A stretch of 29,968 bases of DNA from Aureispira sp. (GTDB lineage: Bacteria; Bacteroidota; Bacteroidia; Chitinophagales; Saprospiraceae), in contig JAAEPD010000521.1 of NCBI GenBank assembly GCA_024222455.1, positions 1 through 29,968 on the forward strand, given 5' to 3'. This document shows positions 7,388 through 29,968 of the stretch, piece by piece. The translations under genes were made by a program, and so were the position numbers. Position 1 is the stretch's first letter; every line of letters starts with the position of its first letter. The notes below the pieces were generated by a model. It saw nothing but the letters and a program-made list of their open reading frames with translations, did no database searches and was not told the origin of the DNA.

Positions 7388-8413
7388 CTACTCTTTAAGA
7401 ACTTTGATTGTAGTTTCTCCTTCCTCTGTTTGCACTTTTATAAAATAAATTCCCTTTGGGCCTTCTAGTTCTAAATTTATTTCTTGCATTGTATCATAAT
7501 TCTGATGATAAACAACTTTTCCCATGAGGTTAAATATATCTACATTAACATCAGTATACATTTTTTCAAGTCTTAGTCCTAAGGTTCTTTGAGTTGGATT
7601 TGGAAAAACATCTACATTTATTTGCTCTACAAAAACTTCAGAAATATCGGTGATGATAGGGTAACAGTTTGTGCTATATGATCCTGTCCATCCCGTAATA
7701 ATCCAATTGGTTGCTGCATAGGAGGTATCATCTACTTGGATACAGGTAAAATTAGAAGAATACGCATTAAACTCACTAGAGATAATGTTTGTATTGTTTC
7801 CATTTTTCAGGTTCACATTTATCAATTGAGGGCCTCCAAAATGAAGACGAAACAATAAACTATTCTTACTCAAATCTAATGTCGTCAACTGATTATTAGA
7901 ACAAATTATAGTTGATAGGCTTGGGTTAGAACTCAGATTCAATGATGTTAACTGATTCCCAAAACAATTAAAATAAAGTAAGTTTGCATTAGAACTTAGA
8001 TCTAAATTTGTTAATTGATTGTAATGACAATCTAAATACGTTAAAGCTGTGTTTGCACTCACATTTAGAAATACCAAAGGGTTCATGAAACATCTAACCT
8101 CGGTAAGTGCAATATTCATACTAAGATCTAAACTATCTATGCTATTCATAGTGCATGTGAGTTTATCCAGTGCGATAAATGTTTCTATTCCAGTTAAATC
8201 AGTTATTCCTTTATTACTAACATCCATTGTCCCTGAAAAAGCCTGCGCTTCAGAAATTTGGATAGCAGTATCACTATTGGTATTAATAGAAGTGTTAGCT
8301 AGCAGTGTAGCTTTAAAATTAGCGTCTGGAATTATTACTACTTGAGCACTACTTTTAGCGCCTAAGCCTATAAAAAAGAATAGAGTAATTGTTGAAAAAA
8401 ATAAGTTGTTCAT
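7388..8413 (-). CDS. leucine-rich-repeat surface protein with a signal peptide and a T9SS type A C-terminal sorting domain
   Basis: Tandem LRR units (LTNLDLSSNANL, LTSLNLSSNPSL, LTTLDLSKNSL). C-terminal Por-secretion sorting domain (VFPNPTQRTLGLRLE...IYFIKVQTEEGETTIKVLKE). N-terminal signal peptide. Confidence 0.85.
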   Translation of the reverse strand: MNNLFFSTITLFFFIGLGAKSSAQVVIIPDANFKATLLANTSINTNSDTAIQISEAQAFSGTMDVSNKGITDLTGIETFIALDKLTCTMNSIDSLDLSMNIALTEVRCFMNPLVFLNVSANTALTYLDCHYNQLTNLDLSSNANLLYFNCFGNQLTSLNLSSNPSLSTIICSNNQLTTLDLSKNSLLFRLHFGGPQLINVNLKNGNNTNIISSEFNAYSSNFTCIQVDDTSYAATNWIITGWTGSYSTNCYPIITDISEVFVEQINVDVFPNPTQRTLGLRLEKMYTDVNVDIFNLMGKVVYHQNYDTMQEINLELEGPKGIYFIKVQTEEGETTIKVLKE

Positions 8414-17395: not shown

Positions 17396-20300
17396 TTATC
17401 GAACAATTGTCACTGTTCCTTTATAAGGTACAGGATTATCAAAACCAGGGAATGTCACTAATATTACATAGTAATAAGTAGCATCAGCTACATTTTGGCC
17501 ATTGTTTGTTCCATCCCAAGTACCATCATAATTGGTAGCTTTAAATACCAATTGTCCCCATCTATTATAAACTTCTACTTCGTTGTCATATAAAGTCAAA
17601 CATGGGATTTCCCAGAAATCATTGACTCCATCTTTGTTTGGTGTGAAACCAGCATGTTGAGGTACACAACGTCCAACTGGAATTGGAACTGAAACAGTAT
17701 CACTACAACCATAATTATCAGTTACTTCTAACAAATAAGTAGTTGTCTCCAATGGTTGAGTTGTAGTACTTGCAGCAGTAGGATCAACAACCCAAGTTGT
17801 TGGAGTCCAAACATAAAATAAATTGTTACCAACACTTGCACTACCATCTAGTGTAGCAATCTGCCCTAAGAGCAATTCACTTGCAGCATCTGTAGTAGCA
17901 ACAGCATCTACAGTATTAAATGTAGCACCTAATGTAGCTGTATTACAAGTCAAAGCATCTGTAGCAGAAACAGACCAAACATCTCCATCTTCTAAATTGA
18001 TAGTATGCACTCCTGAAACATTATTAGCATCCACTAAATATGGTGCACTAGTTCCATTGATGGTTACCGTAATAATATAGTCAGCACTACCCGCAGTCAA
18101 CGCAGGTAAACCTCCAGTCAAGGTAATATCCAATTCTGCATTACCAACACTATCACAGTCATAAGTATAAGTCCCTGTTCCACCATTGATTGCTACATTG
18201 GTATATCCAGGATCATTACACAAGTTACCACAAGTAGAAGGTGTCCATGCAAAAGAACCAGCAGTACTGTCTTCACAGTTGCCATCAGAAACAACAACAA
18301 CCCAGCTGTCACCATCTGTTACTTGGAAAGTATAAGCTACTGTGTCATTTATTTGACCAGCTACAGGTATTTGATAACCACTGTTTCCAGTTGGGCCTAT
18401 AATTGTTACTAAGTAATTAGAAGCATCAAAGCTTGGCTGACCTCCAGACAAGGAAATAGTGATATCTGCTGTTTTGTCAATATTACAAGTATAATTTCCA
18501 GCTGTTACACCAATATTTGCTAAGGCACAAACATTAGGACAGTTGGCTGCATTAAACACATACGCCCCAGTTTCACTATCTGTACAGTTAGACTGATCTG
18601 ATACCGTTATAGTCCAATTATCTCCATCCTCTACTGTAAAGGTGTACTGTACACTGTTGCCAACTACTCCAGCAACCTGTGCATTCGATACATTACCCCC
18701 TGTACTTGCTGTAGATCCTGTAACAGTTACATCATAATTAGATGCATCGTAAGAAGGCTGTCCACCAGCAATAGTTACCGCCACAGAAGCAGAACCATCA
18801 CCATTACAGGTATAAGTATAAGGACCCACTACCAATGGATCTAATAAACAAATGTTACAGTTCGTTGCATTGTAATTGTATGTAGCAGAAGCCGTATCTA
18901 CACAGCCACTAGAGTCTGTTGCGACTACTTGCCATGTATCTCCATCATTAACAGAGAATTGGAAAGCTCCAGCTCCTTGTACATAAGAACCATTAGCTCC
19001 AGCAAAATTAGACCCCGAAACTACAATAGACTGATAGTTGCCTGTTGCAGCAGCCTGTCCACCTGATATATATAGTGTTACTAATGCTGTTCCATTAGCG
19101 CTACAAGTATAAACCGTGCTATCTATTGGATCTGGTAAGATTTGAACAGGATTAGGGCCACAAGGATCACAATCTTGCAAATAATTGAATGTTCCAGTTG
19201 CAGTATCAGCACAAGCATTAGAGTCTATGGCAACAACCTGCCAGTTATCTCCATCACCTACACTAAACTGGAAGGCACCTGTACCTTGTACATAAGTACC
19301 GTTGCCACCAACTGTAGAACCCGTAACTGTTATAGATTGGAAGTTTCCACCATTAGCTCCAGCTGCTCCACCTATTAAGTATAAAGTAACTGTTGCTGTA
19401 GTAGCTGGTGTATTACAAGTATAAACACTACTATTGACTGGATCAGGTAATATTTCTACTGGCATCATTGCACATGGATCACAATCCGTCAAGAAATCGT
19501 AAGCATCACTAAGTGTATCTGCACACATTGCAGTGTCAGTCACTATCATTTGCCAGTTATCTCCATCATTAACAATGAATGAGAAAGTAGATGTACCTCC
19601 TACAACTCCAGGAAGTGTTGCATTAGTATAATTTTGTCCAAATACAGTAGAACCCGCTACATTAACAGTATAGTTACTACCATCATTGGTAGGAGCACCT
19701 CCGCTTACAGTTACTTCCACTATAGAAATACCACTAGCCTGACAATTGTAACTATAGTTGGCAATTACAGGATTAACAGCACAGTAATCTGGACAGTTTG
19801 TTAAGTTATATGTAAATGTATGTGAAGCAGTATCAGCACAAGCATTAATATCGCCTGCTATAACTTGCCATGTATCTCCATCTCCTACAGTAAATGAGAA
19901 TGGGGTTGGAGCAGCACCGTTATTATCAGTTACATTGTATGTTGTATTTTGTCCAGGAATTGTAGAACCTGAAACATTTACAATATAATCACCACCTGTT
20001 GTACTTGGCTGACCTCCTGTCAAGAAGATAGTCACCAATGCAGAATCACCACCAGGCAAACAAGTATAAACACTGCTGTCTATTGGATCAGGAGTAATAA
20101 ATACAGGATTGTTTTTACAAGGATTCAAACAAGTTGCTGCATTGATCGATATAGTAACACCACAACCTGAATTATCGAAAATTTCTACAGTATATACATC
20201 AGCTGTTGGTACAGAAACAGACTGTACAACACCATTACCCATTGTTCCCATACTAATTGTATCACCGATAGTATTGGTTACTACCCATGTAAAGTCAGAA

Positions 20301-23092
20301 CCATTGTACGCAGGTTCTCCACCACTAGCAGAGAATCCAATCACACAATTGTTAGGATCATAAGTTTGTGTAGTTGTTATTTGTTGTAAGAATACAACTG
20401 GTGCACCATTTTCGATACTAGCACTTGGACAAATCAATTGTCCCCAATCGCTAGCTCTATCTGCCATCGCTGTTACGTGATAAACGGTATTAAATTGAGG
20501 ATTTCCGAAAGATCCACTACCATTACCATCGTTCACAAAATGGTGAGGTCCCAAAAATACAGAATCTAAATAACCAAAGTTACCATTGATAATAGAATCT
20601 GGTAATGGTGGAATGCTATCATGGATAACATATCCTAAACCCATACAATCAGGAATCTTACTAGTAGTTAATCCTAACCCGTCAAACATTACACTAGGAA
20701 GGATAGTATCATTATAACAAATGAATGCAGTATCCATGCTGTTGTAATTAATAGTATCTCCATGCTGAGTTGTATAGCGAGAATCACCTGCATAAACTTC
20801 TTCTTCGTTGATATACTCTATAATATACTGCCCTTGATCACCAGGCGAACCACCATCCAATTGGATAACATAAGTTTGTCCAGGATTCAAGCAACATAAA
20901 TCAACAGTAGAACCATTGAAACCAGTACTACCAAAAGCAATTGGTGTAACCTGCTGTGTACCCTGAGTACCATCTTCAGTATAAGTAGCACCTCCTATAG
21001 TTGTTGGACTCAATCCACCATAGCAAGTATCACCACCTAAAAGTTCATACACAGAATAGTTCAATGTATCTAATCCAATATAAGCACGCAAACGCATCTC
21101 AATAACACCAGAAGGTGGGGCTACAAAGTAATGCCAAACCGTTTGGTTAGCTCTATTACTATCTACAGTATGAGAGAATGGCTCACCTGCCAATGTCTCT
21201 ATACAAGCATTTTCGTTAGTACCTGCTACAGAACCAAAAGTTAATGGCGGTTGACCAATCAACTGTACAGGCACCTCATAGATAGAATCTGAATTTGTTA
21301 AACACAAAATATCATTACCTGGAGGGTTTTGAGTAGGATCAGCAATACTAGGATCATAAGCCCATACTTCAGCTTCATTAGCTAAAGAAACGCCTTGAGG
21401 ATCAACCATACCATAGTAAGTATAGCCTGGCTCCAAACAACGTCTCTCTATAATAGCTGTTTTATTAGAACTCAAAATACCAGTTCCACCTTCTACATCT
21501 TCCAGTTGTGTCAAGTTAGCACAAGACATATCTGCTGGAGTACCAGGAGCAAATCTAGCATCATAAGCATAAAAAGCTAAGTTTTCGGTCTCATTCAAAG
21601 GACCAGCATCTAAATCGCCTTCTAAATAGATACGTCCACTAGGCCCTGCTGTAAACTGAAACCACATACTACCATTCAACCCATTTCCATTAGGAGAGGT
21701 ATAAGTATAAGCTACATAGTCCTGAGCATTGTTTCCTGTAAATGGAGCATCAATTTCTTCATCACTAACTCTATCTGTAGTCAACTGTGTTGATTCTGGT
21801 AATCCATTAGCTTCTGTACGTACAGTAGTAGATTGTGCATCTGCTGTAATATCTGTACCTTGACAAGGTATGTCTACGCCATCAAATGGGCTACCACCAA
21901 TATCTTCTATTCTGATACCAATGTACCCTCTTTCGTTAGCATCATCTGTGGTCAACTGTATATAATAAGTTTCCCCTGCTATTAAGGCATGACCATCACG
22001 TATACTTGGTGCAACATTAAGTACATCACCAAAATGTGCTGTAGCCTCAGCACTTGGATTGATAACAGGAATATCATCATCGGCATGACCTTGGTAAGAA
22101 AGGTAATCGAATTTGTTTTTGATAGGTGTTGGCCCTACATATCCAATATAATTATTGAATCCTGCCAAACAACCTAATCCATCAGCTGCATGGTATAATG
22201 CTAGCTCTGTTCCAAACTCAGTAGTTGCTACATCTGTTTCAATGGTCACTTGACCACTGGCAGGCGCTACAAAATAGAACCAAGCAGAACCATGTCCACC
22301 ATTAGCTACACTATTAAATTCTGGCTCATCACCATTAGCATCCATAGTTAAAGGACCACACCAAGCAAAAGCTTGAGTAGTATTATTAACAGGTATCTGT
22401 ATAGCATTACAAATATCATCTTCGGCTACATTCACAGATAAAGCTAAACGAGTAACCTCAAATGTAATTTCATAATCTTGTGGACAACCACCATCTGTAC
22501 TACTCAACATTCTAGTGATAGGTCCACTAGTACCAGGTGCAGCAGGAACAGGAATATTGAAAGCTTCTATAATTGTTTCTCCATCCATACCTCCAATACC
22601 ACCATTGTAAGATTGTGTTAAATCATCATTATCATAAGCAATCCACCGCATATTCATGACCGTAGGTACATCTGAGGCACAAGGGTACTCATGATTAAAA
22701 AATAATCCATTCCCTGGAATATATTCAGCATCGCCTGAATTAAGAAAGCAAGTACCTCCAATATTAGGGCCTCCTGGAACTAATGTAAATGCTCCATTAT
22801 TATTATCAACATAGGCATGATTAAAATCACCACCTAATCGACCATTCACTAATCCAAAAAGATTAGCTGAAGAATTATTATTGGTTTTTCCAATAGTGTT
22901 ATCTGTTGCTTGAAACTCCCATGTAAAATCACTCTCACAGGTAGCAAACCCATCACAATCTTCATTTTTAGTAACTTCTACAGATGTTACTCTCACTTGG
23001 ACAATAGCTTGCCCATAGCTACTATTCAGTGCAAAAATCATTAATACACAGGCTAAACAGCCACGTGCTAATGTGTAAGTAGTTCTTAACAT
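17396..23092 (-). CDS. giant cell-surface adhesin-like protein (1898 aa) with ~7 tandem ~100-aa Cys-framed beta-rich repeats and a gliding-motility-associated (type B, CHU_C) T9SS C-terminal domain
   Basis: N-terminal signal peptide. The C-terminus carries the TIGR04131-type motif GFTPNKDGVNDFWEIP...YNRWGQLVF. Internal repeats are of the form C..NPV.ILPDP.DS.VYTC...V.GS...G.NG.YVQG.GAFQFSV.DGD.WQVVA.DS..CADT. The paired porP/sprF gene follows. Confidence 0.88.
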   Translation of the reverse strand: MLRTTYTLARGCLACVLMIFALNSSYGQAIVQVRVTSVEVTKNEDCDGFATCESDFTWEFQATDNTIGKTNNNSSANLFGLVNGRLGGDFNHAYVDNNNGAFTLVPGGPNIGGTCFLNSGDAEYIPGNGLFFNHEYPCASDVPTVMNMRWIAYDNDDLTQSYNGGIGGMDGETIIEAFNIPVPAAPGTSGPITRMLSSTDGGCPQDYEITFEVTRLALSVNVAEDDICNAIQIPVNNTTQAFAWCGPLTMDANGDEPEFNSVANGGHGSAWFYFVAPASGQVTIETDVATTEFGTELALYHAADGLGCLAGFNNYIGYVGPTPIKNKFDYLSYQGHADDDIPVINPSAEATAHFGDVLNVAPSIRDGHALIAGETYYIQLTTDDANERGYIGIRIEDIGGSPFDGVDIPCQGTDITADAQSTTVRTEANGLPESTQLTTDRVSDEEIDAPFTGNNAQDYVAYTYTSPNGNGLNGSMWFQFTAGPSGRIYLEGDLDAGPLNETENLAFYAYDARFAPGTPADMSCANLTQLEDVEGGTGILSSNKTAIIERRCLEPGYTYYGMVDPQGVSLANEAEVWAYDPSIADPTQNPPGNDILCLTNSDSIYEVPVQLIGQPPLTFGSVAGTNENACIETLAGEPFSHTVDSNRANQTVWHYFVAPPSGVIEMRLRAYIGLDTLNYSVYELLGGDTCYGGLSPTTIGGATYTEDGTQGTQQVTPIAFGSTGFNGSTVDLCCLNPGQTYVIQLDGGSPGDQGQYIIEYINEEEVYAGDSRYTTQHGDTINYNSMDTAFICYNDTILPSVMFDGLGLTTSKIPDCMGLGYVIHDSIPPLPDSIINGNFGYLDSVFLGPHHFVNDGNGSGSFGNPQFNTVYHVTAMADRASDWGQLICPSASIENGAPVVFLQQITTTQTYDPNNCVIGFSASGGEPAYNGSDFTWVVTNTIGDTISMGTMGNGVVQSVSVPTADVYTVEIFDNSGCGVTISINAATCLNPCKNNPVFITPDPIDSSVYTCLPGGDSALVTIFLTGGQPSTTGGDYIVNVSGSTIPGQNTTYNVTDNNGAAPTPFSFTVGDGDTWQVIAGDINACADTASHTFTYNLTNCPDYCAVNPVIANYSYNCQASGISIVEVTVSGGAPTNDGSNYTVNVAGSTVFGQNYTNATLPGVVGGTSTFSFIVNDGDNWQMIVTDTAMCADTLSDAYDFLTDCDPCAMMPVEILPDPVNSSVYTCNTPATTATVTLYLIGGAAGANGGNFQSITVTGSTVGGNGTYVQGTGAFQFSVGDGDNWQVVAIDSNACADTATGTFNYLQDCDPCGPNPVQILPDPIDSTVYTCSANGTALVTLYISGGQAAATGNYQSIVVSGSNFAGANGSYVQGAGAFQFSVNDGDTWQVVATDSSGCVDTASATYNYNATNCNICLLDPLVVGPYTYTCNGDGSASVAVTIAGGQPSYDASNYDVTVTGSTASTGGNVSNAQVAGVVGNSVQYTFTVEDGDNWTITVSDQSNCTDSETGAYVFNAANCPNVCALANIGVTAGNYTCNIDKTADITISLSGGQPSFDASNYLVTIIGPTGNSGYQIPVAGQINDTVAYTFQVTDGDSWVVVVSDGNCEDSTAGSFAWTPSTCGNLCNDPGYTNVAINGGTGTYTYDCDSVGNAELDITLTGGLPALTAGSADYIITVTINGTSAPYLVDANNVSGVHTINLEDGDVWSVSATDALTCNTATLGATFNTVDAVATTDAASELLLGQIATLDGSASVGNNLFYVWTPTTWVVDPTAASTTTQPLETTTYLLEVTDNYGCSDTVSVPIPVGRCVPQHAGFTPNKDGVNDFWEIPCLTLYDNEVEVYNRWGQLVFKATNYDGTWDGTNNGQNVADATYYYVILVTFPGFDNPVPYKGTVTIVR
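17930..20040 (-). repeat. intragenic tandem coding repeats, ~7 copies of ~300 nt, diverged
   Basis: The protein-level repeats of the adhesin are visible at the nucleotide level as diverged tandem copies, e.g. the ...ccttgtacataagtaccgtt / ...ccttgtacataagaaccatt blocks. Coordinates are approximate. Confidence 0.6.
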
Positions 23093-23358: not shown

Positions 23359-24876
23359 ATGAATCCATCTACTTGGCGTCACTTCTATAAGAGTTTACAC
23401 AAAAACTCTTGTATTTTAATCTTGGGGCCCCGCATCGCAACTTTCTTAGGAGAGTCAGGGGAAGAACAAATAGATCAAGCTTTTTCTAGACAACTCTCTA
23501 AAGAGATTGAAGATAAAAACAATGCAAGTACTACTGCAAACAAAATATCTTTTGATTCCTCCCAAAGAGATAACTTACCTTATGCCTCTATGCGCTGGAC
23601 CAAAGGGCTAAGAATGAAGGATACAATTCTTAGAGAAGAGTTGTGTAGTTTCTTTGATAACTCAGTGAGTAGGCCTCCTAAAATTTATAAAGATTTAGCC
23701 AAGCTCCCTTTCTCTCTAGTTATTAATACTAGCCCTGATGAGTATATGCATCAAGCATTTATGCGAGTAGGCAAAGAGGCAGAACAACTTCATTACAACT
23801 ATCAACGAAATCAAGCGTCTTTAACTCCTGAAATAAGCATTGATAAGCCTGTGGTTTACAACCTTTTTGGAACAATAGAAGAAACAGAATCCTTGGTTAT
23901 TACGAAAGAAGATCAGGTCAATTTCATCAATAATCTGCTTGGAAATACCTCTACCCTTCCAAATGAGATCTTGCAACATTTTGACGAACATAAAACTTAC
24001 TTATTCTTAGGTTTTGACAGTAATGATTGGCATCTTCCTCTCCTATTTAGGAGTTTGCGCTTGCACAAAGAAAAAGAAATGTCCTTTTATTTACATGACA
24101 GTCCTATAAAAGCAGCTACTAAAGATTTTTATATAGACTCCTTTGACTTTCAGTTTGTATCAAATGATGAAAATACATTTGTACATGATTTAGCTCAAGG
24201 ATATATTGAATGGGAAGAGAGCCAAAAAGGAAAATCTAGCAATACTAATGAAAGTTCAAAACCAAGCTATATCACTTCTCCACAACCAGGAGTAAAAGGA
24301 AAAGTAAATATATTAATGATGACAGCGAACCCTAAGGATACAGCTGCAATAGAACTCAATGACGAAATAGATGTCATTGAGGAAGTACATATGCGAGGCA
24401 CAGAACGTAGTAAGTTCTTTTTCAAGCCTATTCTAAATACTAAAAAAGCTCGTTTATTAGAATTACTTCTACGACACAATCCTCAAATCGTGCATTTTTC
24501 GGGGCATGGTACGGGTCGGGCTGGATTGGTTTTTTATGGAGAATCGGGCAGTGCAGATATGGTTCAAGGGCCAGAGTTAGCTAACCTATTCAAACAATTC
24601 AATACCCAAATTAGCTGTGTCATTCTCAATGCTTGTTACTCTGAAGAACAAGCCCAAGTTATGGCTCAATATATTCCTAATGTAATTGGAACCAATAACG
24701 CAATTGATGACCAAGTTGCCATCAAATTTACAGAAGGATTTTACACCGCAATTTTTGCAGGCAAAAATTATGAAGACTCCTTTAATTTGGGAATAGCTCA
24801 TGTAGGCTTGCACAGTTTTCCAGAAGGTGGTCGTCCTGTATTTTATAAAGATGGTAAAAAAATAGATGCAGCATAA
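23359..24876 (+). CDS. SIR2-like (SIR2_2/DHS-like NAD-binding fold) domain fused to a C-terminal CHAT caspase-like peptidase domain
   Basis: 505 aa. N-terminal half has SIR2_2-like blocks: ILILGPRIATFLG (Rossmann start), LVINTSPDEY (TTNYD-like), VVYNLFGTIEETESLVITKEDQV (KLHGS...lvlTeedY-like) and YLFLGFDSNDWHL (lFiGySl.D-like). C-terminal CHAT: PQIVHFSGHGTGRAGLVF (His) and CVILNACYSEEQAQ (Cys). The stop overlaps the start of the next gene (TAATG). Confidence 0.8.
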   Translation: MNPSTWRHFYKSLHKNSCILILGPRIATFLGESGEEQIDQAFSRQLSKEIEDKNNASTTANKISFDSSQRDNLPYASMRWTKGLRMKDTILREELCSFFDNSVSRPPKIYKDLAKLPFSLVINTSPDEYMHQAFMRVGKEAEQLHYNYQRNQASLTPEISIDKPVVYNLFGTIEETESLVITKEDQVNFINNLLGNTSTLPNEILQHFDEHKTYLFLGFDSNDWHLPLLFRSLRLHKEKEMSFYLHDSPIKAATKDFYIDSFDFQFVSNDENTFVHDLAQGYIEWEESQKGKSSNTNESSKPSYITSPQPGVKGKVNILMMTANPKDTAAIELNDEIDVIEEVHMRGTERSKFFFKPILNTKKARLLELLLRHNPQIVHFSGHGTGRAGLVFYGESGSADMVQGPELANLFKQFNTQISCVILNACYSEEQAQVMAQYIPNVIGTNNAIDDQVAIKFTEGFYTAIFAGKNYEDSFNLGIAHVGLHSFPEGGRPVFYKDGKKIDAA

Positions 24877-26633
24877 TGAGTCAACAACATAAACATAATC
24901 GTTATCCTGGTATTCGCTCTTTTGAGCAGTACGAAAGTGCCCTGTTTTTTGGAAGACGCCAAGAAACTCGCGAGCTTTATAGCCTCATAAAAGTAGAACA
25001 ATTTGTAGTTCTTTTTTCTAAATCAGGATTGGGAAAAACATCCTTGCTTAATGCAGGGGTTTTACCATTATTAGAACAAGAAGAATATAGTTCTGTTAAG
25101 GTGCGTTTTCAGAACAAAGGAGTCTCACCTTTAAATATGCTGTGGAATGCTGTCAAAAGCAGAATGGAAGAACTGCAGATAGACTCCATGGTAAACCAAC
25201 GAATAAAAGCTTGGTGTGGAAACCGCCCCCCTAGTCTTTGGGAATATTTCAAAGCTTGTTCTATGGTAATGAATTATTTGCCAGCTGTTCCTATTCTAAT
25301 TTTAGATCAATTTGAGGAGTTTTTTATACACTCAAAGAAAGATCAATCCATATTGATTCAGCTCTTAGCTGATATTATCTTTGGACGTGTACCCACAGAT
25401 GTTCAGAAAACCCTAAAAGAAAAAAAGGCTCCAAGCGCCCGAGATGAACAATGGACAGAACCGCTTAACTGGAAATTAGTATTTGCTATCCGATCTGACC
25501 GCTTGAGTATGTTGGATAATTTGAGTGCTCAGATACCTCCCATTCTGAGCAATCGCTATCAATTGCATCCGCTTAGCAAAAGAAAAGCTGAGGAAGCTAT
25601 TTTACTCCCTGCTCAATCTGGCGCTTATGATTTTGCATCTGATAAATTTAATTACTCTGATGATGCTTTAGATGATATTATTAATAATCTGAGTAACGAA
25701 AAAGGAGAAATTGAGTCTTTTCAACTACAAATCATCTGTGGGCATTTAGAGGATATTGTAATTCAAAAGCAGCTAAAAACGGTTGAAGTTCATCATATTG
25801 GTGGAGCTGATGGCATCAAACAAATTCTAAATAACTACTATCGAAATCGAATAGATTCTATAGGTACTGCCGAAGAGCAACAACTAGCTACCAAACTCAT
25901 TGAGGAAGGCTTAATTGTAGATGGTGCAAGAGTTAGTCTTGCTGAATCTATTGTAACAAGTCGATATAATATAACAGATTCTTTATTGAGTAAGTTACTA
26001 GCTACTCGTTTAATAAAACCAGAAAACACGCATTTAGGCAAGGCTTACGAGGTTTCACATGATACACTAGTTGCACCAATTCTCACCTCTTTTAAGCAAC
26101 GTAAACTAGAGGAAGAACGACTACAACGTGCCCAAGAAAAAAAGGAGCAAGAAGAAAAATTAGCAGCTCAACAAGCTGAATTAGAAGAAGAACAACGTCG
26201 TCGTCGTCAGGCCAACCGTAGAACAACCATAGCTGTAGGATTTGCAATACTTGCCTTGATTGCTTCTATTGCGGCATATATACTCTGGACAAAGGCCGAG
26301 ACTGCTACTGAAGCAGCTGTAAATGCAGTAAAAAATAGAGAGGCACAACTCAGGGTATCAGATAGTTTAAGAATAGTTTCAGATAACGCAAGAATAGAGG
26401 CTGAAAGAAGTCTTAAGGATTATCATTTAGCAGAGGTAAAGCGTCTTAACACTAAAATTAATATGATGAATAGTTCAAGTCAGTTTAAGGCAGAAAAAGA
26501 GTTGCATACGAAGCGTTTAGTCTTTATCGAAAAAGTGCTCAAAAACTCTACCACTACACCTGAAGAACAACAAGAAATGGAAGCCTTGCAAAAACAAGCA
26601 GTTGCTCGTCTTGAAGAACTTAAGGATTATTAA
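24876..26633 (+). CDS. STAND-class P-loop NTPase with a C-terminal coiled coil, one TM helix and a further coiled-coil tail
   Basis: 585 aa. FFGRRQETRELYSLI...VVLFSKSGLGKTSLLNAG is the Walker A element with the preceding FxGR motif typical of STAND/AAA_16-like NTPases. PILILDQFEEFF is Walker B (hhhhDQFEE). LVFAIRSDRL is a sensor-like motif. Then comes a K/E/Q-rich coiled coil, the TM helix TIAVGFAILALIASIAAYILW and a ~115-aa C-terminal coiled coil. Translationally coupled to the upstream SIR2-CHAT gene. Confidence 0.8.
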   Translation: MSQQHKHNRYPGIRSFEQYESALFFGRRQETRELYSLIKVEQFVVLFSKSGLGKTSLLNAGVLPLLEQEEYSSVKVRFQNKGVSPLNMLWNAVKSRMEELQIDSMVNQRIKAWCGNRPPSLWEYFKACSMVMNYLPAVPILILDQFEEFFIHSKKDQSILIQLLADIIFGRVPTDVQKTLKEKKAPSARDEQWTEPLNWKLVFAIRSDRLSMLDNLSAQIPPILSNRYQLHPLSKRKAEEAILLPAQSGAYDFASDKFNYSDDALDDIINNLSNEKGEIESFQLQIICGHLEDIVIQKQLKTVEVHHIGGADGIKQILNNYYRNRIDSIGTAEEQQLATKLIEEGLIVDGARVSLAESIVTSRYNITDSLLSKLLATRLIKPENTHLGKAYEVSHDTLVAPILTSFKQRKLEEERLQRAQEKKEQEEKLAAQQAELEEEQRRRRQANRRTTIAVGFAILALIASIAAYILWTKAETATEAAVNAVKNREAQLRVSDSLRIVSDNARIEAERSLKDYHLAEVKRLNTKINMMNSSSQFKAEKELHTKRLVFIEKVLKNSTTTPEEQQEMEALQKQAVARLEELKDY

Positions 26634-27214
26634 ACAATTGATTGCATTTTTTCCTTCATCTGCTTTGCAAAATAGAAATATAGGAGCAAATATAAAGGCA
26701 TGCCCAAAACCAAGTAAATCACAGCACCTTCTGGACCATAATTTTGGTTAATAGCTTTGTAAAATTGGTTCTGGGTTAAAAAGGATTGCAACAAAAGATA
26801 TAGAAAGCCTACAAAAAGGCCAATATTTAGAATCATTAGCACAGTTCCTAATGCACCAGTAGGCTGTATAAGTAACCCTCCTATATATACAATCCAAGAT
26901 AAAATATAAACCATCAAGGTCAGTTTAGAATAGGACCTGAAGTTTTCATAAATTGCCTCTGCTCTAGTATAGGAATGATTCTCAAGATTTCCTGTCAATT
27001 TCAGATGCTCCTCATCCAGACCTCTTTCTTTTAGGATTGAGATAGCTGCATCTCTCCATTCCAAAGCATAACCATATTGTCGATAGTTTTTGACAACATC
27101 CATTAGTTTTTCGGTATCCAAATTCTGCAATCGTTCTATTGGCTCATCCATTTTAGCTTCTAGTTTTGGGTATAATATACAAAGTACTACTTTGGGTGTA
27201 TAAATAAAAGCCAC
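26630..27214 (-). CDS. hypothetical polytopic membrane protein, 194 aa
   Basis: Three or four hydrophobic helices (LTLMVYILSWIVYIGGLLI, TVLMILNIGLFVGFLYLLL, VIYLVLGMPLYLLLYFYF). Its stop codon overlaps the stop codon of the convergent NTPase gene (tTAa). Confidence 0.55.
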   Translation of the reverse strand: MAFIYTPKVVLCILYPKLEAKMDEPIERLQNLDTEKLMDVVKNYRQYGYALEWRDAAISILKERGLDEEHLKLTGNLENHSYTRAEAIYENFRSYSKLTLMVYILSWIVYIGGLLIQPTGALGTVLMILNIGLFVGFLYLLLQSFLTQNQFYKAINQNYGPEGAVIYLVLGMPLYLLLYFYFAKQMKEKMQSIV

Positions 27215-27485
27215 TTTGCAATCATTTAGCCCTTTTTGTAATCACTCCTTACCATAAAAGATTATTGATCATAATAGTTTACAATAAAAAACAGAACTTT
27301 TTCAGCCTAGATAGTTAGATTCTAGATCTAGCTTCACAAAGAGATTACAGCCTCTGTTCCCTATTTGTACCCCTCCTGAAATTTATTTTAGAAGCTTATA
27401 TGAATACTTTTACATAAGCGAACAGCAGCACATTATTACTGAACATTAATTTCCTAACAATTTCATCAGATCTAAAACATTTTAT

Positions 27486-29705
27486 ATGAAAAATTACTTT
27501 TTTATTTTATGGTTTATTGCTAGTGGCAACATCCTATTGGGGCAAAATAATGCCTTAACTTTTGATGGTGTAGACGATTATGTAGAAATGGCTAACAACA
27601 CTATTGTTGGTTCTACAACAATGACAATAGAAGCTTGGGTTAATTCAAGCGCTATTGGCTCTGATGGAATATTTTCGATAGAAGGAGTAGTCAATTGTAT
27701 AGTCTCAAATAATGGAAATGTTCGATTCTTTTTTGATGGAAGCTCAAGCGGTTCTACAAATTTTGCTGCAGGCATAAACGATGGTGCTTGGCACCATGTA
27801 GCAGCAACTAATGATAATGGGACAACTAGAGTCTATGTTGATGGTGATTTATTAGGCACCCAATCCGAATTGGTAGATACTGCAACAATCAATTCGTTGA
27901 ATAGACCTGTTACGATTGGAGCTTTAAGTCCTGGTTCTGGACCAGGTAGCTTTTTTCAAGGAATGATTGATGAGGTTAGAGTATGGAATGTTGCTCGTAC
28001 AGAAACAGAAATTCAAAACAACATCTGTCAACTCTCAAATCCAGCTTCTGAACCCAATTTGGTGGCTTATTATGATTTTAATCAATCTACAGGAATGCTT
28101 TTATCTGATTTAGGACCATCTAGTTTTAATGGTGCGTTGATGAATATGATAGGAACAGAATGGTCTGCAAGTTCTTGTCCTTTAGCTAACATAGCATCTA
28201 TCTACCCAAAAGTTTCTTCTAAACTGACAGATGCATACCCTATAGAGATGCCTAACCTAAATGCTTATCCATTGTATGCACATGCTGAAGTAAAACCAGC
28301 ATGGGCTGTAAACTTGACTAATGTTGAGTTTTTGGTGAATGGAACTACACCAATCCCTACTACCCAAGAAGATGGCTATTATATGGCTTGGTGGACACCC
28401 ACATCTACAGGCAGCCATGACATCCATGTGAAAGCTACTGCTAGCAATGGAAATTCTACCACAGATACAATAACCGTAAATGTTGTCGATACTGCATCGA
28501 ATAGAAATGTACAAACATTTGATGGTGATTTAATTGATTTTGGTAGCGCTTCTAGATGGTTTTATGGCACTTACACCTTGCCTCAATCTATAGGCGCCTA
28601 TGATCAGATCATTGCTAATTTTTCAGTTACCTGCCCTTCTATTTCTGGAGGTTGCGATGACTGGGATCGATTAGCTTATGTAGAATACAAAGCACCAGAT
28701 GGTTCTTGGATGGAGTTATTCCGCTATATTACACCTTATGGAGTTGCTTGCAATCATAGTATAGATGTTACGGATTATGCATCTTTGCTGCATGGCAATA
28801 TCGAACTAAGAATGTTTATTGACACTTGGGGGTCTGGTGGCTGGGATATTCACTTAGATTTTGACTACATTGCAGGCACCCCCACTTATCTGTATTCCAG
28901 CATACAAGAAGTATGGCATGGTAGTTATAATTTCGGAAATCCAGCTGATTTACAGCCTTGTGATACTGTTTCTATAGATTTTCCAGCCAACTCTCAAAAA
29001 GCAACTTTTAGAGTTACGACTACGGGGCATGGTTGGGGAAGCAACAACACCTCAAATGCAGCTGAATTTTATAACGCTACACATCAGTTTCACATTAATT
29101 CTGCGCACATTTTTACGCAAAATCTGTGGAACACCTGCAACCCTAATCCAGATAACTGTACCAACCAAAATGGCACATGGTACCATAATAGAGCAGGTTG
29201 GTGTCCAGGCGCTATTGCACCTCCCAATACTTATGATTTAACACCCTATATTGGCTCAAGTCCATTTGATTTTGCATATGTATTCCAACAATCGTATCAA
29301 GATCTTTGTCACCCTAATAATCCATCTTGCGTTAGTGGAACAACTTGCTCTGATTGTAATGCTGGATATAATCCATTTTATAGAATTGGAGGTTATATGA
29401 TTAGCTTTAGCAATGCTCCTGTCATCACTAGCACTTTTGGATTAGAAGAACAAGAAGAATTTGACTTAATAGTCTACCCTAATCCTAATAATGGTATTTT
29501 CAATATGAATTTAGCTAACCCAACAACAGAAACTGTTGTAACGGTTAATGACATATCAGGAAAAACTCTAAAAACATATTACTTTGGCAATAATGAGGAG
29601 TTGAATAATTATCAATTTGATCTCTCCAACTTAAGCTCAGGAGTATATTTCATTAAGATTAATACAGAAAAACAAGAAACGGTTAGAAAATTAGTATTGC
29701 ATTAG
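27486..29705 (+). CDS. secreted multidomain protein: LamG/concanavalin-A-like lectin domain, then a PNGase F-like (peptide-N4-(N-acetyl-beta-glucosaminyl)asparagine amidase F) two-domain core, then a T9SS type A C-terminal sorting domain
   Basis: Signal peptide. The LamG_3-like block is LTFDGVDDYVEM...WHHVAAT...RVYVDG...IDEVRVWN. The core is colinear with recalled Elizabethkingia PNGase F: CDDWDRLAYVEYK matches CDEWDRYANVYVK; SIDVTDYASLLHGNIELRMFIDTW matches EIDVTDFKSLLSGNTELKIYTETW; DFDYIAGTPTYLYS matches DFDIVYGTPDYKYS; RAGWCPGAIAPP matches RAGWCPGMAVPT; FYRIGGYMISFSN matches FYAISSFVIAKSN. The C-terminus FDLIVYPNPNNGIFNMNL...VYFIKINTEKQETVRKLVLH is a T9SS CTD. Confidence 0.85.
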   Translation: MKNYFFILWFIASGNILLGQNNALTFDGVDDYVEMANNTIVGSTTMTIEAWVNSSAIGSDGIFSIEGVVNCIVSNNGNVRFFFDGSSSGSTNFAAGINDGAWHHVAATNDNGTTRVYVDGDLLGTQSELVDTATINSLNRPVTIGALSPGSGPGSFFQGMIDEVRVWNVARTETEIQNNICQLSNPASEPNLVAYYDFNQSTGMLLSDLGPSSFNGALMNMIGTEWSASSCPLANIASIYPKVSSKLTDAYPIEMPNLNAYPLYAHAEVKPAWAVNLTNVEFLVNGTTPIPTTQEDGYYMAWWTPTSTGSHDIHVKATASNGNSTTDTITVNVVDTASNRNVQTFDGDLIDFGSASRWFYGTYTLPQSIGAYDQIIANFSVTCPSISGGCDDWDRLAYVEYKAPDGSWMELFRYITPYGVACNHSIDVTDYASLLHGNIELRMFIDTWGSGGWDIHLDFDYIAGTPTYLYSSIQEVWHGSYNFGNPADLQPCDTVSIDFPANSQKATFRVTTTGHGWGSNNTSNAAEFYNATHQFHINSAHIFTQNLWNTCNPNPDNCTNQNGTWYHNRAGWCPGAIAPPNTYDLTPYIGSSPFDFAYVFQQSYQDLCHPNNPSCVSGTTCSDCNAGYNPFYRIGGYMISFSNAPVITSTFGLEEQEEFDLIVYPNPNNGIFNMNLANPTTETVVTVNDISGKTLKTYYFGNNEELNNYQFDLSNLSSGVYFIKINTEKQETVRKLVLH

Positions 29706-29732
29706 TAGGATAGGTTTTCGAGATATAGTCTA

Positions 29733-29770
29733 GGGGAATGCTGTTTGAGAGCATTTCCCCTTTTTATTTT
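29733..29770 (+). terminator. rho-independent terminator of the PNGase F-like gene
   Basis: ggggaatgct / agcatttcccc form a 10-bp stem with one bulged T and loop gtttgag, followed by TTTTTATTTT. Confidence 0.8.
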
Positions 29771-29968
29771 AAATAGAGAGGGATATCTATTTTTTTTAGG
29801 CCTTCTATTGGCTTATCCATCTTTGATATGTAATTTTGCATTATACAACCATATAGAAGTGATTTAAAAACTAAAAGTTAATGTGAGATATTTTTTAAGA
29901 AAAATCATAGCAAAAACTAAGTAGTGGGCTTGAATCCAGTTTTGAGCAGAAGTCTCAAATCGAATTAG

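Follow-up and report, generated by a model that had tools for sequence, protein, structure and literature searches.

A modular PNGase F-family gene of Aureispira sp. predicted to encode a secreted N-glycan-releasing enzyme

The 29,968 nucleotide stretch of Aureispira sp. DNA analysed here, referred to as the window, contains a complete gene for a modular PNGase F-family protein (Table 1). Its position and strand are borne out by the open reading frame listing. An identical 739 aa protein is present in the NCBI database as 'MAG: T9SS type A sorting domain-containing protein [Aureispira sp.]'; the generic name arises because NCBIfam has no model for the core, a scan of which found none. The modules are arranged in the order putative signal peptide, LamG, disordered linker, Ig/FN3-like β-sandwich, PNGase F core and T9SS type A C-terminal domain (CTD). 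The Ig/FN3-like β-sandwich and a four-cysteine loop insertion at aa ~603–630 are both absent from the original prediction. Although other LamG forms are ~90 aa longer, a pseudogene or truncation was rejected, as P0002, the closest relative with the same architecture, is equally short and all of the domains are intact. Antisense ORFs of 65, 85, and 70 aa within the gene are without support and were disregarded.

The neighbours of the gene are a 194 aa membrane protein, an nSTAND1 NTPase, and the end of the contig. No SusC/SusD pair, glycosidase, or transporter neighbours it within the window. It is an orphan gene and its context therefore gives no independent support. The terminator-like hairpin has a 10 bp stem with 5 GC pairs, followed by CTTTTTATTT. 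A σ70-type promoter scan found 13 sites, where 10.8 are expected from shuffles, which is no better than the shuffled sequence, and no Bacteroidetes-type TAnnTTTG motif was seen by eye upstream of the gene. Nothing was found in an Rfam scan of positions 26500–29968. P0002 is on a 5.8 kb contig with an unrelated TPR/GerE neighbour and offers no informative synteny.

Table 1. Features of the Aureispira sp. PNGase F-family gene, with positions in the window
Feature	Residues (aa)	Position	Strand	Basis
Complete gene for modular PNGase F-family protein		27486..29705	+	ATG start, 739 codons and stop (ORF listing)
Putative Sec-type signal peptide, MKNYFFILWFIASGNILLGQ	1–20	27486..27545	+	Sequence inspection by eye
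LamG/concanavalin A-like jelly-roll, putative targeting/binding module	24–197	27555..28076	+	PF13385, PF02210
Low-confidence flexible linker	198–235	28077..28190	+	pLDDT <50 at aa 202–234
Ig/FN3-like beta-sandwich	236–338	28191..28499	+	Stand-alone AF2 model, Foldseek, BLAST
PNGase F-type double jelly-roll catalytic core (predicted)	339–645	28500..29420	+	phmmer, Foldseek, PF09113
W393-D394-R395 (PNGase F W59-D60-R61)	393–395	28662..28670	+	Residue mapping, codons checked; invariant in 120/120, also in A1
D446 (PNGase F E118, substrate-recognition acid); conservative Glu to Asp	446	28821..28823	+	Residue mapping, family alignment
H515-G-W517 (GHGWG loop); W517 is PNGase F W191	515–517	29028..29036	+	MAFFT family alignment; invariant in A1
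E527 (PNGase F E206, second catalytic acid)	527	29064..29066	+	Residue mapping; 119/120 relatives
R569-A-G-W572 (PNGase F R248...W251)	569–572	29190..29201	+	Residue mapping, family alignment, A1; invariant
T9SS type A C-terminal sorting domain	661–739	29466..29702	+	PF18962, TIGR04183; motifs YPNP..G, GVYF
Intrinsic-terminator-like hairpin, then T run		29733..29769	+	Starts 28 nt past stop codon

The N-terminus, read by eye, is hydrophobic and without a lipobox cysteine, and aa 2–14 form a helix at low pLDDT in the AlphaFold model. At the C-terminal end, PF18962 (Por_Secre_tail; 56.7 bits against a cut-off of 27, E 3.1e-15) and TIGR04183 (47.8 bits against a cut-off of 23, E 1e-12) span aa 663–738, and the PDB entry 8glk_D, deposited as Endonuclease I, aligns to aa 661–738. 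PorP/SprF is encoded on the same contig (E 8.9e-62), as are three further T9SS-tagged proteins, one a CHU_C type B cargo and two with other Por_Secre_tail or CHU_C tags. None of the core T9SS machinery genes PorK/L/M/N and Sov were found within the window.

The LamG domain matches PF13385 (Laminin_G_3) at aa 27–177 with 94.9 bits against a cut-off of 27.6 (E 6.8e-27), and PF02210 also matches the region (E 8.4e-9). Its sequence matches in the PDB are 4qvs and 4dqa, while Foldseek matches it to pentraxin and LamG domains and to AbnA carbohydrate-binding domain 4 (5hon). The LamG and the type A CTD of the original prediction are thus both real, having passed curated thresholds, and its conclusion that the enzyme would be secreted or surface-attached is therefore sound. 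A carbohydrate-binding role for the LamG is assumed from its superfamily and from the interchange of this module with discoidin modules in relatives. The LamG is 75% identical to that of P0002 and 25–33% identical to those of relatives, despite cores that are ~80% identical. A search with the LamG and linker alone returned four matches, all of ≤34% identity and uncharacterised, with P0001 and P0002 unlisted; the source of the module was not found. LamG-bearing relatives have in addition a ~90 aa Big-like domain that is missing from the Aureispira protein and from P0002. The linker stands in the place of this domain in relatives of 760–840 aa, as seen from alignments A1 and A2 consensus and from a comparison of lengths. 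The Ig/FN3-like domain that follows has a pLDDT of 94.3 in the stand-alone model, and Foldseek places it closest to the FN3-like module of CbhA, 3pdd (TMq 0.71), the B1 domain of CelAly, and the Ig-like domain of PPAD. By BLAST it is found in all 120 of the closest relatives, irrespective of the N-terminal module.

The core belongs to the PNGase F superfamily (EC 3.5.1.52; Pfam PF09112 and PF09113, clan CL0612). Against the PDB, phmmer matches it to 1pnf, 1pgs, and 3pms at E ~2e-37, with aa 340–602 colinear with residues 7–281 of the 314 residue PNGase F and 38% identity over 258 residues. This alignment covers both jelly rolls, therefore the predicted colinearity with the Elizabethkingia enzyme holds. 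Of the N- and C-domain models proposed as a check, PF09113 (N-glycanase_C) is over its cut-off of 25 at aa 493–587 with 48.7 bits, whereas PF09112 (N-glycanase_N), at 21.2 bits, is marginally under its gathering threshold of 22.4. The top Foldseek match of the AlphaFold model is 1pnf_A (E 1.2e-18, TM 0.80, rmsd 3.1 Å over 329 columns), ranking above the type II PNGases, zebrafish Ngly2, and the B. fragilis PNGase. The core, with pLDDT mostly >85 in the AF2 model, forms two eight-stranded jelly rolls side by side, as in the PNGase F superfamily.

Both catalytic acids of PNGase F are retained in the alignment, D60 as D394 and E206 as E527. Neither of the conditions set for refuting the original prediction therefore holds, as the PNGase F match is highly significant and the acidic residues have not been lost. 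The catalytic roles of Asp60 and Glu206 in PNGase F have been confirmed, Asp60 being flanked by the chitobiose-binding residues W59 and R61 (PMC12753239). Residue mapping shows that Y85 and W120 are likewise kept, as Y418 and W448. Nine residues (W393, D394, R395, Y418, W448, W517, E527, R569, and W572) are essentially invariant in a family alignment of the 120 closest relatives, made with MAFFT on fast settings, which indicates that the active site is under purifying selection. For Arg248, the equivalent of R569, a role at the active site of PNGase F was reportedly described by Kuhn et al. in 1995. PNGase F has three disulfides, of which two are kept here, and six further cysteines are invariant or nearly so, which fits an extracellular enzyme. 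There are differences near the catalytic residues. W207 is replaced by Phe (F528) and the C204–C208 disulfide beside E206 has been lost. The position equivalent to E118 is Asp in 62 of the 120 relatives and Glu in the other 58, with Asp in 15 of 16 LamG forms and Glu in 51 of 85 discoidin forms. The E118D and W207F substitutions and the lost disulfide could alter activity or specificity.

The original prediction described PNGase F family members as few and implied that this architecture is rare. The first is wrong and the second is not supported. The core search returned 1,419 clusters at 50% identity, the first database search gave at least 745 matches, and a tree of 1,897 superfamily sequences was presented by Bakshani et al. 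2025 (PMC12381499). T9SS signals and accessory beta-modules have already been described for PNGaseDo and PNGaseL, and proteins with the LamG, PNGase, and CTD combination recur in marine Flavobacteriales and Vicingaceae MAGs. The gene product is intact but ordinary, one of a large and already recognised group of modular proteins related to PNGase F in Bacteroidota. Of the 120 closest relatives, 16 have LamG as the N-terminal module, 85 have discoidin, and 19 have none. This swapping among close relatives shows that the module is accessory. In gut Bacteroidales MAGs there are relatives with 42–44% core identity that carry the CTD, and 24 of these loci are directly downstream of a SusC/SusD pair, which supports a role in glycan foraging.

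Judged from its sequence, the gene product very probably removes entire N-linked glycans from glycoproteins. The complete explanation, that it is a secreted PNGase F-type enzyme releasing intact N-glycans from eukaryotic glycoproteins for scavenging, is considered likely. The putative Sec signal peptide would direct the protein to the periplasm and the type A CTD would then direct its export via the type IX secretion system. In T9SS export the CTD is normally removed by cleavage, and the cargo either leaves the cell or becomes anchored to its surface. Outside the cell, the core would bind the GlcNAc-GlcNAc of the N-glycan via W393, R395, Y418, D446, W448, W517, and W572. D394 and E527, assisted by R569, would hydrolyse the GlcNAc-Asn amide, yielding the intact glycan and converting Asn to Asp. 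The Ig-like domain may serve as a rigid spacer fixed to the core, and the LamG on its flexible linker as an exchangeable targeting or binding module. The enzyme would thereby scavenge N-glycans and unmask the peptide backbone of eukaryotic glycoproteins present in seawater, whether of algal, animal, or detrital origin.

It is possible, on a tentative reading of the residue differences, that the enzyme is an active PNGase of shifted specificity, in line with the different substrate preference raised in the original prediction, and that it may tolerate or prefer core α-1,3-fucosylated or other non-mammalian (algal, invertebrate) N-glycans. The Asp at D446 is shorter than the Glu of E118, the W207F change and the lost C204–C208 disulfide flank the catalytic Glu, and the choice of Asp or Glu correlates with the type of N-terminal module. 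H515 matches the His that most superfamily members other than PNGase F are reported to have at this point of the loop (PNGaseL paper, PMC12381499). The six newly assayed enzymes all have a more open site, with activity on high-mannose and insect-type substrates the commonest among them, however the specificities observed are not explained by the published models (PMC12381499). Asp for Glu is also a conservative change, and such a shift, suggested by the sequence, would be a sub-case of the main explanation. An extension of this idea is that the marine clade aims a single deglycosylating core at different classes of glycoprotein by means of exchangeable lectin-type heads (LamG, discoidin, or no head), carried on an unchanging Ig-PNGase-CTD chassis, and that the D446/E switch, which co-varies with the type of head, tunes acceptance of non-mammalian core-modified N-glycans. 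This is speculative and on balance doubtful. If true, the PNGase of Aureispira could be adapted to seawater, active on native proteins, and of a specificity outside those of PNGases F, A, and L.

The same chemistry could be aimed at a different target, the PNGase-sensitive, GlcNAc-Asn-linked glycans on bacterial glycoproteins, whether of prey, of competitors, or of the T9SS cargo of Bacteroidota. Cytophaga hutchinsonii N-glycosylates T9SS CTDs at N-X-S/T in the periplasm and this glycan is PNGase F-sensitive, yet according to the same review CTD glycosylation has not been found in other Bacteroidetes (PMC11611037). Aureispira is reported to be a contact-dependent predator of bacteria (bioRxiv 10.1101/2024.01.29.577165), and the gene is an orphan outside any glycan-utilisation locus, however nothing ties it to predation. 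Eukaryotic N-glycans are the substrate of all characterised superfamily members. In addition, PUL linkage is seen in the relatives from herbivore gut Bacteroidales, for which N-glycans from the diet and the host are the evident substrate. A bacterial target is therefore unlikely.

Engineered inactive PNGase F variants bind glycans, and a surface-targeted protein with two putative binding modules might conceivably be a non-catalytic lectin or adhesin, using both the PNGase F-like fold and the LamG for glycan binding alone. The PNGase F jelly-roll domains are also structurally CBM-like (PMC8812541), but D394, E527, and R569 are essentially invariant across the 120 relatives and would not be needed by a pure lectin, making this most improbable.

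The preferred reading, a secreted N-glycan-releasing enzyme, has both applied and ecological implications. PNGases are the workhorse reagents of glycomics and only a handful of the superfamily members have been assayed. A disulfide-rich, secreted marine enzyme with a lectin module could be suited to glycoproteins in their native state or to unusual core structures. On the ecological side, the gene adds to the evidence for N-glycan stripping by marine Bacteroidota, from both dissolved and particulate glycoproteins, and for diversification of their PNGases by module swapping. Neither the ecological nor the reagent point is new in principle, as earlier publications cover the family, its modularity, and its T9SS export. 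In practice the value of the gene goes no further than an additional enzyme-screening candidate and an annotation that improves on the current one.

The closest proteins to that of Aureispira are themselves uncharacterised. P0002–P0120 are 'peptide-N-glycosidase F-related' or 'discoidin domain-containing' proteins from marine Flavobacteriales, Vicingaceae, and Saprospiraceae MAGs. They have the same Ig-core-CTD chassis, cores that are 58–85% identical, and all of the same active-site residues, differing in that the N-terminal module of most is either discoidin (F5/8 type C) or absent. The type I PNGase F of Elizabethkingia meningoseptica (1PNF/1PGS/3PMS) has in common with the Aureispira protein the double jelly-roll fold, the catalytic D/E/R set, most of the chitobiose-binding aromatics, and two of three disulfides. 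It is, however, a single module of 314 residues without LamG, Ig-like domain, or T9SS CTD. Compared with it, the Aureispira protein has E118D, W207F, a GHGWG loop instead of SGWGH, no C204–C208 disulfide, and the extra four-cysteine loop, ~18 residues long, close to the C-terminal end of the core.

PNGaseDo of Draconibacterium orientale and PNGaseL of Flavobacterium akiainvivens are PNGase F-superfamily enzymes from environmental Bacteroidota (PMC12381499). By their published description both share with the Aureispira protein accessory beta-sheet modules and C-terminal T9SS signals. In PNGaseL the extra module is C-terminal, however, and PNGaseDo has three beta-modules; no LamG module is mentioned in this study, in which most of the genes are orphans (PMC12381499). 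As a guess, PNGaseDo is placed in the ~850 aa Bacteroidales/Marinilabiliales group. Both enzymes were expressed and assayed on N-glycoproteins. PNGaseL was active on all substrates tested, whereas the other five assayed enzymes, including PNGaseDo, have a narrower specificity (PMC12381499). The catalytic fold and the Asp/Glu pair are also common to the type II PNGases (PNGase F-II, 4R4X; P. massiliensis, 7ZGN) and to Ngly2 (9LWG), the acid PNGase of zebrafish. These are far more distant, at 10–17% identity by structural alignment, and their additional domains are bowl-like and N-terminal, or else protease-associated and thioredoxin-like. Ngly2 has His at the W59 and R61 positions and is active at acid pH (PMC12753239). 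The Trp and Arg are kept in the Aureispira protein and this argues for an optimum pH that would be neutral or alkaline.

The open reading frame lies where the original prediction had placed it, with an ATG start and 739 codons. An intergenic region of 271 bp lies ahead of it, which suggests a single-gene unit, and a terminator of hairpin plus T-run begins 28 nt past its stop. An identical protein is held by NCBI as 'MAG: T9SS type A sorting domain-containing protein [Aureispira sp.]', an uninformative name explained by the NCBIfam scan of the core, which found no model for the PNGase core. The type A sorting domain does have one, TIGR04183, matched at 47.8 bits vs 23.

Features of the query protein (aa), their PNGase F equivalents, and other genes of the contig (nt)
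Feature	Position	Evidence or description
Query gene	27486..29705 (+)	
Terminator	29733-29769	hairpin + T-run
Signal helix	N-terminus	AlphaFold2
LamG jelly roll	aa 24-197	AlphaFold2, moderate confidence
Laminin_G_3	aa 27-177	Pfam, E 6.8e-27
Disordered linker	aa 202-234	AlphaFold2, pLDDT below 50
Beta-sandwich	aa 242-334	AlphaFold2, very confident
PNGase core	aa 340-642	AlphaFold2
N-glycanase_N	aa 409-460	Pfam, 21.2 vs 22.4, slightly below threshold
N-glycanase_C	aa 493-587	Pfam, 48.7 bits vs cut-off 25
CTD	aa 661-738	AlphaFold2
Por_Secre_tail	aa 663-737	Pfam, E 3.1e-15
PNGase F W59-D60-R61	W393-D394-R395	
PNGase F Y85	Y418	
PNGase F E118	D446	codon 28821..28823
PNGase F W120	W448	
PNGase F E206	E527	
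PNGase F W207	F528	
PNGase F R248	R569	
PNGase F W251	W572	
LRR protein	7388..8413 (-)	341 aa, type A T9SS tail
MVP homologue	8874..11381 (+)	835 aa, PF11978 E 4.2e-30
TPR-CHAT protein	12801..15962 (-)	1,053 aa, CHAT protease domain E 4e-56
PorP/SprF family protein	16213..17187 (-)	E 8.9e-62
CHU_C (type B) T9SS cargo	17396..23092 (-)	1,898 aa
SIR2_2-CHAT protein	23359..24876 (+)	505 aa
nSTAND1 NTPase	24876..26633 (+)	585 aa

The predicted fusion of a LamG domain, a core colinear with PNGase F and a T9SS type A C-terminal domain (CTD) is borne out. The top phmmer matches among all PDB sequences are PNGase F itself (3pms, 1pnf and 1pgs, E about 2e-37), with residues 7-281 (of 314) colinear with aa 340-602. 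In the profile search N-glycanase_C passes, but N-glycanase_N is marginally under its cut-off. The AlphaFold2 model, based on a 61-sequence alignment, has a mean pLDDT of 74.9. The core is type I-like, since Foldseek against the PDB ranks 1pnf_A first (E 1.2e-18, TM 0.80 on target, rmsd 3.1 A), above the type II PNGases 4r4x and 7zgn, zebrafish Ngly2 9lwg and B. fragilis 3ks7. Between LamG and core is a domain absent from the original prediction. Modelled alone it has a pLDDT of 94.3, and its nearest Foldseek structures are the C. thermocellum CbhA FN3-like module, CelAly B1 and the P. gingivalis PPAD Ig-like domain; it is a generic Ig/FN3-like sandwich. A nearly invariant four-cysteine loop in the core (C608, C615, C621, C624) replaces a shorter PNGase F loop and, with the conserved C422 and C558, fits a disulfide-stabilised extracellular protein. 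The PNGase F disulfides C51-C56 and C231-C252 are retained and C204-C208 is lost.

Active-site positions were transferred in 1PNF numbering through the phmmer alignment (38% identity, 258 aligned positions) and the codons checked. Realignment with the 120 closest database relatives (MAFFT) equates W517, in the GHGWG loop, with PNGase F W191. In this and the family sequence alignment the mapped positions are invariant except 446 and 527, with E527 retained in 119 of 120 relatives. Position 446 is Asp in 62 and Glu in 58, and the residue co-varies with the N-terminal module: Asp in 15/16 LamG and 13/19 headless forms, Glu in 51/85 discoidin forms. The pattern may be phylogenetic and not functional. 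In PNGase F, D60 and E206 are catalytic and W59, R61 and W191 capture chitobiose; mutation of the equivalent Asp and Glu in Ngly2 showed both to be essential (PMC12753239). Both catalytic acids, D394 and E527, are kept and the PNGase F match is significant; neither of the two outcomes named as refuting the original prediction was seen. The acid enzyme Ngly2 has His in place of W59 and R61 (PMC12753239), and since the query retains W and R, its optimum is inferred to be neutral to alkaline.

The protein is quite probably an active PNGase, which would be exported by Sec and then T9SS and would cut whole N-glycans off eukaryotic glycoproteins as a source of nutrients. In this reading the Ig domain would be a spacer, and LamG would be a flexibly tethered, exchangeable targeting module. 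As a sub-case, a specificity shifted from that of PNGase F is suggested by E118D, W207F, loss of the C204-C208 disulfide and H515, and by the more open sites of six newly assayed superfamily enzymes (PMC12381499). Bacterial glycoproteins are a possible but unsupported substrate: C. hutchinsonii T9SS CTDs bear PNGase F-sensitive N-glycans (PMC11611037), and bacteria are given as prey of Aureispira in bioRxiv 10.1101/2024.01.29.577165. A non-catalytic lectin is unlikely because the catalytic triad is invariant.

All 120 closest relatives share the Ig-core-CTD chassis, but their heads differ: 16 have LamG, 85 have discoidin (PF00754 plus PF22633) and 19 have no head. Compared with the query, median identity is 63% for the core (range 58-85%), 45% for the Ig-like domain (34-66%), 41% for the CTD (28-57%) and 29% for LamG (25-33%, save 75% in P0002, the nearest relative of the same architecture). 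The query is a mosaic, since P0002 is nearest in LamG yet its core (71% identical) is farther than Flavobacteriales and Vicingaceae cores (80-84%). A Big-like domain of about 90 aa, carried between head and Ig by other LamG and discoidin forms, is missing from both the query and P0002. A search with LamG alone gave no match closer than 34% identity. Identity above 80% between Aureispira and Flavobacteriales MAG cores suggests a possible lateral spread among marine Bacteroidota.

The genes around the query are unrelated to glycan use, and annotation of the neighbours found no SusC/D pair or glycosidase in the window. Adjacent are a 194-aa membrane protein on the opposite strand and the nSTAND1 NTPase, with the SIR2-CHAT protein before it; the TPR-CHAT protein and the CHU_C cargo with its PorP/SprF partner are also neighbours, and RtcB, the major-vault-protein homologue and others lie farther off. 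That the organism uses T9SS is shown by PorP/SprF and by several CTD proteins encoded on this contig. A scan of GTDB species genomes yielded 44 homologue loci. Nine are from marine Flavobacteriales, Vicingaceae, Saprospiraceae or Bacteroidia MAGs (core identity 66-83%) and, like the window gene, have varied neighbours. The other 35 are mainly from gut or rumen Bacteroidales MAGs (41-44%). When neighbours were clustered and annotated, 24 of these (L013, 1515..9188 (+), and 23 others among L014-L044) had the homologue, about 850 aa and T9SS-tagged, directly downstream of a SusC-like TonB-dependent transporter and a SusD-like protein. One locus, L031, has two tandem copies. Such an arrangement is a PUL and independently supports a role of the wider clade in glycan foraging. 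PUL surface enzymes are unusual as T9SS exports, the lipoprotein route being the norm.

Other genes of the contig are also of note. The MVP homologue has a strong match to the Major Vault Protein shoulder domain and weak Vault_3 repeat and Band_7 matches; such homologues are, to our knowledge, uncommon in bacteria. The SIR2_2-CHAT gene and the nSTAND1 gene, whose product has a charged coiled-coil and a TM-like C-terminus, probably form an operon, given that the stop codon of one gene overlaps the start codon of the next, and the pair resembles a conflict or defence-type system. The TPR-CHAT product is the second CHAT-containing protein on this 30-kb contig. The CHU_C gene is followed by the PorP/SprF gene, in the pairing that is usual for type B cargo and its PorP-like anchor. 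The LRR protein matches the EndoS LRR domain weakly (26.8 bits, slightly below the 27.9 cut-off).

The original prediction was largely right in its overall reading, apart from the overlooked Ig domain and the claim that family members are few. With the full-length sequence, at least 745 proteins were matched at E ≤ 1e-5. An exhaustive phmmer run with the core, over 1.84 billion representatives at 50% identity, yielded 1,419 clusters with E ≤ 1e-3, of which 881 reach ≤ 1e-10 and 158 reach ≤ 1e-30. Bakshani et al. 2025 (PMC12381499; bioRxiv 10.1101/2025.05.27.656428) present a tree of 1,897 superfamily sequences with six new enzymes assayed, and report variable accessory beta-sheet modules, T9SS signals on PNGaseL and PNGaseDo, and orphans as the majority of genes studied. 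This kind of protein is therefore already described. The query adds a new member to a kind that is known and was surveyed recently, and its value is chiefly as an extra candidate for enzyme screening and a correction to public annotation.
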